A stretch of 64,000 nucleotides of DNA from Escherichia coli (GCF_030013205.1 NZ_CP122648.1), one strand, 5' to 3'; shown: positions 41,866 to 44,926, numbered from the stretch's first letter. The notes: generated from the letters alone by a model not told the origin. Program-made: numbers and translations.

Positions 41866-42242
41866 GAAGCTGACCAGACAGTCGCCGCTTCGTCGTCGTC
41901 CTCTTCGGGGGAGACGGGCGGAGGGGAGGAAAGTCCGGGCTCCATAGGGCAGGGTGCCAGGTAACGCCTGGGGGGGAAACCCACGACCAGTGCAACAGAG
42001 AGCAAACCGCCGATGGCCCGCGCAAGCGGGATCAGGTAAGGGTGAAAGGGTGCGGTAAGAGCGCACCGCGCGGCTGGTAACAGTCCGTGGCACGGTAAAC
42101 TCCACCCGGAGCAAGGCCAAATAGGGGTTCATAAGGTACGGCCCGTACTGAACCCGGGTAGGCTGCTTGAGCCAGTGAGCGATTGCTGGCCTAGATGAAT
42201 GACTGTCCACGACAGAACCCGGCTTATCGGTCAGTTTCACCT
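41866..42242 (+). ncRNA. rnpB: RNase P RNA component (M1 RNA, 377 nt)
   Basis: Sequence gaagctgaccagacagtcgccgcttcgtcg...ggcttatcggtcagtttcacct recognised as M1 RNA; ORF 41773..42240 on the other strand is spurious. Confidence 0.97.
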
Positions 42243-42430
42243 GATTTACGTAAAAACCCGCTTCGGCGGGTTTTTGCTTTTGGAGGGGCAGAAAGATGAA
42301 TGACTGTCCACGACACTATACTCAAAAGAAAGCGGCTTATTGGTCAGTTTCACCTCTTTTAACGAAAACCCGGCAGCGTAAACTGGCGGGTTTTTGCTTT
42401 TTGGAGCATAGTGTAAGATGAATAAATATC
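42194..42430 (+). repeat. tandem direct repeats of the rnpB 3' end plus terminator (copies start at 42194, 42295, partial at 42417)
   Basis: gatgaatgactgtccacgaca...ggcttat(c/t)ggtcagtttcacct...gggtttttgctttt repeated. Confidence 0.85.
42248..42287 (+). terminator. rnpB terminator (aaaaacccgc ttcg gcgggttttt)
   Basis: Hairpin plus T-tract seen. Confidence 0.85.
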
Positions 42431-42469
42431 TACGGTATTAATAATAGACTTTGTAAGAAATTATTAAGT

Positions 42470-43657
42470 CTATATTGCATTTAAAAGGTCGTAATCATAC
42501 GTATAGTCCTCTCTGGTAAAATATTGCTTCTCTGAGTTATAAGCTTCATATGTGTTATATTTTACGACCTCAAAGCCATTGTCTGGAGAATTTTCGTCTT
42601 TCTCGGGTATATTATCTGGAAGGAATTCCTCTGAGCTAGAGTCCTCTATGTCTAAATCTGTATTGTAATTAATTTTTGGAACGATCAGATAAGCATTTTC
42701 TTTGACGCTTTCATAATCTTTAATGATTATATCGATGTAATAATCTATTTTTTCTAATGAGAACACTTTCATCTCTGGTAATTTAATTCTGTTCAAGTAA
42801 TTGTTAATTTTCGATGAGCTTTTATATATTTCTTTTGTTAATTCATTTTCTAATTCATCAGTTAGAGTTGCTCTTGGTATAGATTCTATAATTGCAAGTC
42901 TCATAATTTTTAATTGTTCTTCGGTAATATTTCCAAGCGCATTTAAACAACTTTCGACAAGCTTAATTTTTTCTTCAGAATACATATCGCTAATGCTTGT
43001 TAGAACAGGCGTTATTTTTAGTAAATAATCCCAGGAGATTGTGGTGTTTTGTTTTGAACTAACGAAATTTACCTGAAACATGTTGGCATTAGTAAAATCT
43101 GTGTCATCCAATTTAAAAGGATTTAAAATTGCATTGGCCATATGTTTATCTGTAAAATCATAAAGTTCTAAATCGACATTCCGTAAGTCCAGAGAGGATA
43201 GATCAACTATACCTCCAGTCCCACAACTAAAGATTACGTTCAATCTCCTGATTTCATTGTAAATGTCTTTCAATGGGCAATTAACATTGATATTGCCTGT
43301 GGATATTTCCTGGTTTTTTAACGGTTCATTAATTGTAAGTTCACAGGTATTGTCTGATCGTTGAATAATTCGGGCGTTATAACCAAAAAAATCCATACGA
43401 AGAGATGAATCATTATAAAGAATTACATTTTGTAAGTACGCTAATTCTTTTTGAAAATCACCAGTGATAACACATTTCCCACCTGGTTGTAACGCGTTAA
43501 GTAAGGTGACCATTTGAACAGAGGTCTGTTTTAGTTTTTCTATGCCTGGTGCTAGTGCTTCGAGGTTATTTCCTATGGGGCTTTCAGGAAGGTCATTCAT
43601 TTTTCGACGGGCTAAATCACTACTAATATCATTACCAATTGATGAAACAGGGGACAT
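42470..43657 (-). CDS. yhaC: uncharacterized protein YhaC with pentapeptide-repeat-like segment (395 aa)
   Basis: ORF track; AT-rich gene; hydrophobic residue every 5th position across DLSSLDLRNVDLELYDFTDKHMANAILNPFKLDDTDFTNANMFQVNF. Confidence 0.8.
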   Translation of the reverse strand: MSPVSSIGNDISSDLARRKMNDLPESPIGNNLEALAPGIEKLKQTSVQMVTLLNALQPGGKCVITGDFQKELAYLQNVILYNDSSLRMDFFGYNARIIQRSDNTCELTINEPLKNQEISTGNINVNCPLKDIYNEIRRLNVIFSCGTGGIVDLSSLDLRNVDLELYDFTDKHMANAILNPFKLDDTDFTNANMFQVNFVSSKQNTTISWDYLLKITPVLTSISDMYSEEKIKLVESCLNALGNITEEQLKIMRLAIIESIPRATLTDELENELTKEIYKSSSKINNYLNRIKLPEMKVFSLEKIDYYIDIIIKDYESVKENAYLIVPKINYNTDLDIEDSSSEEFLPDNIPEKDENSPDNGFEVVKYNTYEAYNSEKQYFTREDYTYDYDLLNAI

Positions 43658-43668
43658 TATTTTATCCT

Positions 43669-44277
43669 TTATAAATAATCAATAAAAATCATTATTAAAA
43701 TGATCGGGTGAAAAAAAGAGGATTTGCCAACAATCTGAAGGAATGGAGGTTTTATTAAAGTACGTAGGGGGGTTAAGATGGCTTCTTTTCGGGTGAATTT
43801 TGCACAATACTTAGAAATCGTCTCCTTAATACACTCCAGCTCTTTTTTATTGACGGCTGAGCAAGTACATTGTTCGCCAAAAGGTGCAAAAGTGCCTACA
43901 TCTAATGTTTGTATGATATAATCGTCATGTTCTCCTGTAGAAATATCTATGATGAATGGACTCATATTTTCCGGTTGGATTCGAATCATGACAGAAGGAA
44001 CATCGCCTTGATAGAAGTTCAATGCAGTAATTGCAGATAATACTCTCCGCAGTTCATTACTTATACTGTATATTTTATTAACGTCATTGGTGGAGACAAT
44101 TTCTGCAAACTTTCTTTTTACCGTCCAATAATAAATATTTCTGTTGTGATTGTTAACCACTGCGTGCATTGGCGGGATTGAAGGGTGAAAAATATGTGCA
44201 ATTGGGAAGCCTTTCATTGATGCCTGCCTTGTCATCATGACAAACAATAATAGATGCTTATTTTCCTCGCACGGCAC
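43669..44277 (-). CDS. yhaB: uncharacterized protein YhaB (start codon uncertain)
   Basis: ORF track 202-aa ORF; AT-rich; immediately upstream of yhaC on same strand. Confidence 0.7.
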   Translation of the reverse strand: MPCEENKHLLLFVMMTRQASMKGFPIAHIFHPSIPPMHAVVNNHNRNIYYWTVKRKFAEIVSTNDVNKIYSISNELRRVLSAITALNFYQGDVPSVMIRIQPENMSPFIIDISTGEHDDYIIQTLDVGTFAPFGEQCTCSAVNKKELECIKETISKYCAKFTRKEAILTPLRTLIKPPFLQIVGKSSFFHPIILIMIFIDYL

Positions 44278-44472
44278 TTTCGCACTATCAAAAAACGCTC
44301 ATTTACCCGGCATTACAGTAAACGAAGCAACATTCTGTGGCCTACGCCGATCAAAAGCTCTGTGAAAATTCCCCTTGTTGTCTTTGGCTGACCTTATCGC
44401 GGCGACCAGCAATTATTCGTTTTGTGATCCTCAACACAAAATGCTATTCGTCACCTATGAGGGGAGAAGAAT

Positions 44473-44688
44473 TTATGGAAAACGATTGCATTCACAAAAT
44501 GACGTCCTGTCAGAAGAGAAAAAGTTGACGTTAATCAATTGTTCGAGATGATCAATACCTGTATTCGAAATTTTAACATATTGATAAAATAAATGTTTGT
44601 TCTCCAACAAATAGCGTGAAAAAATGTGACGTGCCGCATTATTTATCGCTGAAAATGATTTATTTATAATAAAATTTGAGAACTTGCT
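44473..44688 (-). CDS. tdcR: tdc operon transcriptional activator TdcR (72 aa)
   Basis: ORF track 118-aa ORF; its C-terminal 72 aa (from MSKFSNFIINK) match TdcR as I recall it; divergent from tdcA. Confidence 0.7.
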   Translation of the reverse strand, partial: SKFSNFIINKSFSAINNAARHIFSRYLLENKHLFYQYVKISNTGIDHLEQLINVNFFSSDRTSFCECNRFP

Positions 44689-44926
44689 CATTAAATTTAA
44701 CTCAAAATTTGCCTGGTAATTATCCGGTAATTGCTTGAAATATGGTCTCAGCTCCTTTTTTGTATTAACCACATAACGAATGATGTTATCGCCATAAAAT
44801 ATGGTTATCCCCGTCATTTTTTTTGACAAAAATCAGGGTTTATGCTGATTTTTATACTTTAACTTATTGATATATAAAGATATTTAATTGAAATAACGAT
44901 GCCCTGGAATGTATTGAAAGTTAATT

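Follow-up and report, generated by a model that had tools for sequence, protein, structure and literature searches.

The tandem 3′-end array of rnpB in Escherichia coli: an unoccupied islet attachment site next to the AT-rich yhaC-yhaB-tdcR block

Downstream of rnpB, the gene of the RNA subunit of ribonuclease P (RNase P RNA, M1 RNA), the end of the gene is repeated in a stretch of 64,000 nucleotides (nt) from Escherichia coli (GCF_030013205.1, NZ_CP122648.1), which is referred to as the window in the following, and immediately beyond the repeats lies an AT-rich block carrying yhaC, yhaB and tdcR. The question raised by this locus is whether repeats and block are the remains of an element that once integrated at rnpB, as was considered possible in a first-pass annotation of the window. 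According to our analysis, the locus is probably an unoccupied copy of a known repeat array, which would have originated from an old tandem duplicate and would have been shaped by unequal recombination, while the AT-rich block, whatever its way of arrival, bears no attachment site (att) scar.

The array was defined by repeat search and manual alignment. The first-pass annotation had announced at least one and a half tandem repeats of the last ~50 nt of rnpB plus its terminator, and this is borne out by one full copy (42294-42415) and one partial copy (42416-42437) behind the gene. The components of the array are listed below with their positions in the window.

41866..42242, + strand: rnpB, RNase P RNA (M1 RNA), complete; Rfam RNaseP_bact_a (RF00010), model positions 1-367 of 367
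42193..42293, + strand: unit 1, 101 nt; last 50 nt of rnpB, 3′ trailer, terminator T1, 12-nt spacer
42223..42234, + strand: core CTTATCGGTCAG, the attB crossover region of flk-type islets in other strains, unoccupied here
42250..42281, + strand: terminator T1, hairpin 42250-42277 followed by a U-run; -19.4 kcal/mol, z -4.73
42294..42415, + strand: unit 2, a pseudo-3′-end unit of 122 nt; rnpB-like left block, 12-nt insert, altered P4 strand, core, tail, terminator T2, spacer
42315..42326, + strand: 12-nt insert ACTATACTCAAA, not present in rnpB; marks the pseudo-units of all genera
42336..42347, + strand: second core copy CTTATTGGTCAG, with a single change within the presumed TTATCG overlap
42363..42402, + strand: terminator T2, hairpin 42363-42396 followed by a U-run, of an allele class unlike that of T1; -19.9 kcal/mol, z -3.22
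42416..42437, + strand: unit 3, partial and diverged, 22 nt, AGATGAATAAATATCTACGGTA; end of the array, the same as in K-12 and in a B2 strain

The 22-nt segment AGATGAATGACTGTCCACGACA occurs exactly at 42193-42214, which is within rnpB, and at 42294-42315, and with 73% identity at 42416-42437. The 20-nt core block GGCTTATCGGTCAGTTTCAC is found at 42221 and, with one mismatch, at 42334, but nowhere else in the 64 kb, and no shuffled sequence matched it. Units 1 and 2 are identical in 81 of 101 aligned positions (80%); the 21 gap columns of the alignment correspond to the 12-nt insert and to the longer terminator loop of unit 2, in which the P4 strand reads AGAAAGCGG in place of AGAACCCGG (two changes). 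Taken alone, the third, partial copy is weak, with 14 of 18 positions identical and 11-19 of 500 shuffles equalling it; however, it is in register with the other two. Owing to the insertions and deletions that distinguish the units, the array escaped Tandem Repeats Finder. Only 227 nt, with the repeats, lie between rnpB and yhaC, and the array closes 33 nt before the stop codon of yhaC.

Tandem repeats at this position are not new. A unit of 113 bp repeated 3.5 times 3′ of E. coli rnpB was reportedly described by Reed et al. (in Cell, 1982) and by Reed and Altman (in PNAS, 1983), and we take the array of the window to be the "113-bp repeat" array of these papers. The repeats of the window adjoin rnpB, with unit 1 overlapping the gene end, units 1 and 2 each contain a terminator, and they are homologous to those of K-12; they are the already known 3′-flanking tandem repeats of E. 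coli rnpB. Locus and unit (last ~50 nt of M1 RNA, terminator, spacer) are the same. What differs is that the window possesses a single full extra unit, which is longer (122 nt, with a longer terminator loop) and belongs to another allele class, and that it lacks the repetitive extragenic palindromic (REP) sequence. In K-12, three 113-bp units follow rnpB, the last of which is interrupted by REP, and then comes a strongly diverged unit with the same partial start. Unit 2 of the window is 83% identical to unit 2 of K-12, with the insert at the same position.

Copy number of the rnpB 3′ repeats, which the first-pass annotation had proposed to compare across strains, is variable. A search with the 113-nt unit of 5,426 complete E. 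coli genomes gave 13,014 places in 5,398 genomes, with one to nine matches per genome (median 2), and at least one full pseudo-unit is present in 3,660 genomes. Terminator T1 is polymorphic: the class CCCGCTTCGGCGGG is found in the window and in K-12, while the class CCCGCCAG..CTGGCGGG is found in strain A8 and in the sister species of the genus Escherichia. The latter class sits at T2 in the window; from its occurrence at T1 elsewhere it follows that units recombine within the shared block. At the short end of the range is the B2-type strain DLL557 (locus L003, 5480-5760), the array of which comprises only rnpB, T1 and a partial unit, with yhaC and yhaB present as short deletion remnants; the yhaC-yhaB block is thus dispensable and can be lost by deletion. 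The allele of the window is a minority one. A 721-nt query from the region matches E. coli strain K_EC180 without a difference (100% identity), and 238 of 5,425 genomes match it at 99% identity or more.

Several other sequences have settled within or next to the arrays. In K-12 (locus L001, 5700-5860), a palindrome resembling REP and the bacterial interspersed mosaic element, GCCGGATGCGGCG...GCCTGATAAGCG...CATCAGGC, separates unit 4 from the diverged unit at the end of the array; the strain of the window lacks it. A REP-like sequence also follows the truncated unit of E. albertii (L008). In E. coli strain A8 (L005, 8799-9779), a copy of the insertion sequence (IS) IS621 of the IS110 family stands directly after the first pseudo-unit, and beyond it rlmG-ygjP replaces yhaC, which places a rearrangement endpoint in the array. 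In Salmonella enterica subsp. arizonae (L062, ~880-975) and in Winslowiella iniecta (L054), the loop of T1 is interrupted by CTGAGGGATCCCCAGTAATGGG..., which resembles the terminal repeat of the IS10/IS4 family and is followed by a candidate transposase open reading frame (ORF); judging from the sequence, the interruption would be an IS insertion, unlike an att event.

In other genomes, islets do integrate at the 3′ end of rnpB, which makes it a genuine attachment site. One E. coli genome, noticed as matching the query only as far as the mature end of rnpB, is NZ_CM194533.1, in which an islet of ~7.5 kb splits rnpB at CTTATCGGTCAG. The genes of this islet encode a tyrosine integrase of 486 amino acids (aa), which matches the Pfam family Phage_integrase, a YagK/YfjJ protein, a Hin-like recombinase/resolvase, a flagellin and a repressor of phase-1 flagellin. 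At the left junction, the sequence is ...CCCGG-CTTATCGGTCAG-CTTCAACT and continues into islet DNA, and the right junction reads islet-TGA-CTTATCGGTCAG-TTTCACCT and continues into T1 and the usual units. The islet supplies rnpB with the new tail CTTCAACT, and the native tail and terminator are displaced to its far end; by comparison with the Rfam structure line, the new tail keeps helix P1 paired, the G4-U pair being changed to G4-C. The reconstructed attP core, CTGAC-TTATCG-GTCAG, is a perfect inverted repeat around a 6-nt spacer. Altogether, 19 of 5,426 E. coli genomes carry a gene of the Orf486-type integrase, and it is located directly 3′ of rnpB in all six that were checked. Both attL and attR were defined in this islet locus (L004) and in locus L033.

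According to a passage in PMC3378880 that cites Feng et al., J Bacteriol 2008, the flk genomic islet of E. coli H3, H35, H36, H47 and H53 strains is excised by the tyrosine recombinase Orf486; flkA and flkB have likewise been reported on an islet in E. coli ECC-1470 (PMC5422975). The islet of the NZ_CM194533.1 type is the flk genomic islet. With it, the window shares the chromosomal site; in carriers, the islet stands between rnpB on one side and the repeats and yhaC on the other, and CTTATCGGTCAG bounds it as a direct repeat at both ends. The window differs in that its site is empty, without integrase, flagellin and arm sequences; no Orf486-type integrase, flkA or flkB was found between rnpB and yhaC in the window. 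In flk-type islets (L004, 12444-12666; L126, L127, L131-L133), the integrase gene is oriented like rnpB and starts ~220-290 nt after it. The interval holds a long hairpin without a U-run, and no canonical terminator was seen in it by eye, no terminator scan having been made. Read-through from the strong rnpB promoter could drive the integrase gene in such an arrangement, while T1 would protect islets located in a pseudo-unit from it.

Plasmids and phages were rejected as carriers. No close relative of the Orf486-type integrase was found in plasmids and no relative in phages, and a 21-mer from the P arm of the islets had no match in viral contigs. Records labelled as plasmids did give matches, but with lengths of 0.35-5 Mb they proved to be chromosomes, or pieces of chromosomes, under a wrong label; the DNA matches in phages are terminator look-alikes or host flanks.

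The repeats extend far beyond E. coli. A scan of one genome per species with a 34-mer from the 3′ end of rnpB yielded at least 120 loci, 108 of them with at least 300 nt of downstream sequence. Pseudo-units follow rnpB in 39 of these 108, in arrays of up to five (six units including the rnpB end) and with periods of 105-126 nt; a record of Salmonella has eight places for the unit. The genera concerned include Escherichia, Citrobacter, Klebsiella, Cedecea, Buttiauxella, Kosakonia, Phytobacter, Pluralibacter and Lelliottia, and further Atlantibacter, Superficieibacter, Pantoea, Winslowiella, Erwinia and Izhakiella. In all pseudo-units the insert sits at the same place and the P4 strand is altered; the type of insert mostly tracks taxonomy. 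In 32 of 36 species, the tail of the pseudo-unit equals that of the host's rnpB over its first 5 nt, which fits the exchange that is expected at the core. Across genera, pairwise identity averages 95% in the left block and 92% in the right block, against 58% in the insert and 44% in the spacer. Even with the core as the sole search motif, GACTGTCCAC is found without a mismatch 5′ of 61 of 69 downstream cores. In one locus (L041) the left block has diverged, and in another (L095) the second unit is without an insert and represents a fresh copy of rnpB or a conversion from it.

The islets are likewise found in other hosts. An attL arm follows the true rnpB core in eight further species representatives, and of 28 islet junctions from metagenome contigs, 27 are at the true core and one is at a pseudo-unit. 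An attL arm after the core of a pseudo-unit is seen in Cedecea (L033), Erwinia mallotivora (L043) and L149, with a decayed arm in L007; pseudo-unit cores are occasionally used as secondary sites of islets. Sixteen right ends of islets were recovered, in which the resemblance of the P arm to rnpB starts at AGATG, the same boundary as in the units. The P arm comprises 31 nt, which is the length of the true gene end, versus 42 nt in a pseudo-unit, and one contig (L140) contains a hybrid of P arm and rnpB. Some islets are devoid of an integrase, and two of them serve as examples. That of Cedecea sulfonylureivorans (L033, 4574-7560) has a length of 3 kb, is flanked by attL at a pseudo-unit core and by attR, and carries genes for a protein with PAAR, S-type pyocin and cytotoxic domains and for immunity as well as small ORFs; that of a metagenome-assembled genome of Pluralibacter (L047), a metabolic islet of ~7 kb, shows the same attL arm followed by genes for LysR, major facilitator superfamily, aminotransferase and ATP-binding cassette transporter proteins. 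In the true rnpB core of some metagenomic hosts (L139, L151, L154, L158, L160, L161), CTTAACGGTCAG replaces CTTATCGGTCAG; the same variant is present at the right end of the islet where this was recovered (L139, L158), and several pseudo-units of other genera have CTTACCGGTCAG. The presumed overlap sequence is thus variable.

The DNA beyond the array is of another kind. Its features are as follows.

42438..44371: E. coli-specific AT-rich segment, GC 0.34; in sister Escherichia species a ~35-nt AT-rich spacer takes its place, after an intact last unit
42470..43657, - strand: yhaC, orphan gene, 395 aa, convergent with rnpB; no Pfam domain
43669..44208, - strand: yhaB, orphan gene, 179 aa; no Pfam domain in the scan, precomputed family PF27690 listed
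44473..44691, - strand: tdcR, 72 aa; no Pfam domain; in the sample, restricted to the genus Escherichia

A GC content of roughly 30-35% against GC-rich flanking genes had been estimated by eye, and calculation agrees: GC is 0.341 over 42430-44830 versus 0.510 over all 64 kb, the minimum among 2.4-kb stretches of the window is reached by the one beginning at 42501 (GC 0.339), and GC at third codon positions (GC3) is 0.28 in yhaC, 0.33 in yhaB and 0.32 in tdcR versus 0.52-0.54 in garR and garK. The assignment of two uncharacterized proteins and tdcR to the block also stands, with yhaC and yhaB as orphans and TdcR recognized by NCBIfam with 171 bits. Among the sampled loci, YhaC and YhaB are encoded in E. 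coli only and TdcR in Escherichia only (59-83% identity), and elsewhere tdcA comes within ~0.6-1 kb after rnpB. Relatives of YhaC among 5.8 billion proteins come from E. coli and Shigella only, and YhaC alleles found at this same position are as little as 63% identical. With atypical composition, atypical third codon positions and a restricted distribution within conserved synteny, the AT-rich block is compositionally foreign and restricted to its lineage. A donor is not apparent: no homologue was found outside E. coli/Shigella, and no mobility gene was found for the block. Regions within yhaC and between tdcA and tdcR of K-12 have been described as H-NS-bound promoter islands associated with predicted foreign genes (PMC3661553, Table 1), and yhaB-yhaC has been classed as a young operon (PMC12218254). 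Low GC and GC3 of the yhaC/tdcR region are confirmed here; no donor was found, so that the genes may have arisen within the lineage. As a separate observation, YhaC of the window is 87% identical to that of K-12, versus 98-100% for the flanking GarK and TdcA, and this divergence within E. coli suggests either fast evolution or old balanced alleles.

From these data the following course of events is proposed. The first pseudo-unit would have arisen as a tandem duplicate of the rnpB end before the split of Enterobacteriaceae and Erwiniaceae, and would then have gained the insert of 10-12 nt and the two changes in the P4 strand. Unequal recombination among units would make the array grow and shrink, and exchange within the shared block CGGCTTATCGGTCAG(T/C)TTCA would swap the tail and the terminator next to rnpB. 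Transcripts of rnpB would end at T1, while T2, as far as can be judged from its structure, may act as a back-up terminator by which the convergent yhaC is shielded. As other genomes show, the shared block includes the crossover core for islets with a tyrosine integrase (flk type, Orf486), whose attP imitates the end of rnpB over ~60-75 bp; these islets normally enter the true rnpB core, bringing the compatible tail CTTCAACT, and now and then the core of a pseudo-unit. Finally, yhaC-yhaB would be an E. coli-specific insertion of AT-rich orphan genes at the distal end of the array, and tdcR an older addition in the genus Escherichia.

Some observations weigh against this scenario. The contrast between the rnpB-like blocks and the insert and spacer (95% and 92% versus 58% and 44% identity) is not predicted by passive duplication and drift, and the occurrence of the pseudo-unit-specific AAAGAA(A/C)GCGG in many genera and of CTTACCGG in several is hard to square with gene conversion from rnpB. 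Homologous and integrase-mediated exchange cannot be told apart in these data. With regard to the first point, the finding of units by motifs explains part of the apparent conservation of the blocks.

The same points lead to a second reading, in which the pseudo-units are functional modules under purifying selection, with a role in 3′-end formation of M1 RNA or termination, as an RNA that mimics the 3′ strand of M1, or as a recombination platform that is kept because the islets make use of it or work with it. It is favoured by the strong conservation of two rnpB-like blocks across genera next to a randomised spacer, by pseudo-unit-specific changes that are common to several genera, which implies that the blocks have not simply been overwritten by rnpB, by terminators that have stayed intact in the units despite different hairpin sequences, and by the fact that islets do use units. 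However, the units are dispensable, being missing in ~60% of the species loci and in about one third of the E. coli genomes, including the sampled B2 strains; distal units decay, the left block of L041 has diverged, and only one of 28 metagenome islets uses a pseudo-unit. No promoter-like site precedes unit 2, none of nine predicted pairs covaries in 32 species, and no Rfam family matches at threshold (sub-threshold, terminator-like matches and a partial RNase P match of 19 bits occur). A structured small RNA or cis-regulatory RNA was rejected on the grounds of this lack of covariation and of an Rfam family. The high identity of the blocks, moreover, is inflated by the motif-based search. Selection for a function of this kind is considered unlikely. 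Spelled out, it would mean an ancient selected module of Enterobacteriaceae and Erwiniaceae, the blocks GACTGTCCAC ... AAAGAANGCGGCTTAYCGGTCAG of which are kept for M1 3′-end biogenesis or termination or for docking and exchange of islets; attP would mimic a whole unit, and excision between non-cognate cores could move units, tails and terminators between hosts. We regard this extended version as doubtful, too.

A third reading is the one with which this analysis started: the repeats would be footprints of attachment, and yhaC-yhaB-tdcR would be what has survived of the cargo of an element once inserted at rnpB or in a pseudo-unit. Part of it holds. The rnpB end is a real attB, the repeated sequence is used by a known recombinase (in E. 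coli, in the eight further species representatives and in the 28 metagenome contigs), integrase-less islets with recognisable arms exist at the rnpB site (Cedecea L033, Pluralibacter L047), and the block is AT-rich, foreign-looking and restricted to a lineage. A weak argument in addition is that in Escherichia without yhaC/yhaB the last unit ends a few bases past the core (GGTCAGTTTCA followed by TTTTT...) and is succeeded by AT-rich DNA with tdcR, which resembles an attL junction.

An integrated element leaves an att footprint in which the gene end is found twice, once before and once after the inserted DNA. In the window, both cores (42223 and 42336) are on the rnpB side of the block, and no other copy, distal to the block or elsewhere, exists in the 64 kb. 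The junction to yhaC in E. coli lies within the left part of a unit and not at the core. The search for integrase remnants came out empty: tblastn of the islet integrase, YagK and the Hin-like protein against the window gave only E values > 0.3, although these three queries could have missed the remnant of an unrelated integrase. The P and P′ arms have no match in the window at up to three mismatches, and sensitive local alignments of them in the AT-rich block are no better than shuffles. An insertion of yhaC-yhaB inside a pseudo-unit, with a right relic of the split unit 5′ of yhaB as hinted at by a MAFFT alignment, was rejected, since the local alignment again scored like shuffles. As to the repeats themselves, the att core is part of them and islets now and then insert there, so that a relation to att sites does exist. 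Yet they are not islet footprints, because they stand in tandem on the gene side, because arrays exist in many islet-free species, because they are older than the split of the two families, and because their left parts (42 nt, near-identical to rnpB) are unlike the diverged 31-nt P arm that a decayed islet would be expected to leave. That the block is a relic of integration at rnpB is thus quite unlikely.

The last reading, that each unit encodes a small basic peptide (37 aa in K-12, 43 aa in the window) and the repeats are a family of small-protein genes, is very improbable in spite of a GGAGG located 8 nt before the ATG at 42296 and a frame open to the next unit (42282-42427 in the window; K-12 units alike), since the frame is not conserved between genera (in Klebsiella a 1-nt deletion shifts it after codon 9, and Kosakonia-type units stop after nine codons), the sister species of Escherichia have no GGAGG, and no RefSeq coding sequence is annotated here in K-12; a coding function of the ORF was rejected, the units being probably non-coding. 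ORFs in this region are said to have been discussed by Reed and Altman (in PNAS, 1983).

The score of rnpB in the Rfam model RNaseP_bact_a is 318.6 bits (E 2.6e-104), which identifies it as a class-A RNase P RNA. The gene order of the window is garR, garK and rnpB, then yhaC, yhaB and tdcR on the minus strand, then tdcA and tdcB on the plus strand; K-12 has the matching order in reverse orientation. The genes were named via NCBIfam (YhaC family, 849 bits; TdcR, 171 bits) and via the annotation of K-12. The synteny garK-rnpB-tdcA-tdcB is found in Citrobacter, Enterobacter, Lelliottia, Pseudocitrobacter and Superficieibacter. Two further features belong to this framework.

41830..41858, + strand: promoter-like site of rnpB, GTGACA, 17-nt spacer, TATACT; 10 of 12 consensus positions; its end is 8 nt 5′ of the Rfam-defined start of rnpB
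45006..45944, + strand: tdcA, the conserved downstream neighbour of rnpB in other genera; outside the islet

A second GC dip (0.36-0.41) is located at 37000-37800 of the window, ~5 kb 5′ of rnpB; from synteny, it is probably the garD-garP intergenic region.

For the window itself, the outcome is mostly a clarification: it contains the classical rnpB repeats, a known flk site that is unoccupied, and a known H-NS-bound region of orphan genes. Beyond the descriptions that were found go three points: the same pseudo-end units occur 3′ of rnpB in two families of enterobacteria; the rnpB core is the target of a widespread islet family, with some integrase-less members, whose attP resembles the gene end to the left and to the right of the crossover; and pseudo-units occasionally serve as secondary sites. 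No link of rnpB to integrases or islands emerged from the literature searched. Should the units be conserved for a function, this would bear on how the gene of an essential ribozyme tolerates integration and exchanges its 3′ end and terminator.

Islands and prophages are known to integrate at the 3′ ends of genes for tRNA and tmRNA, with tandem accretion and with integrase-less, cis-mobilisable elements (the CIME concept, developed for the integrative and conjugative elements of Streptococcus); such integration is reportedly the subject of work by Williams (in NAR, 2002). The rnpB islets follow the same principle, insofar as the islet delivers a replacement 3′ end with which the RNA gene remains functional, the native end has moved to the far side, and att-flanked islets without an integrase exist (L033). 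They depart from it in three respects: the target is the gene of RNase P RNA, the likeness of attP to the gene extends to either side of the crossover, and the tandem pseudo-ends, which are common to two bacterial families, predate the islets seen here.

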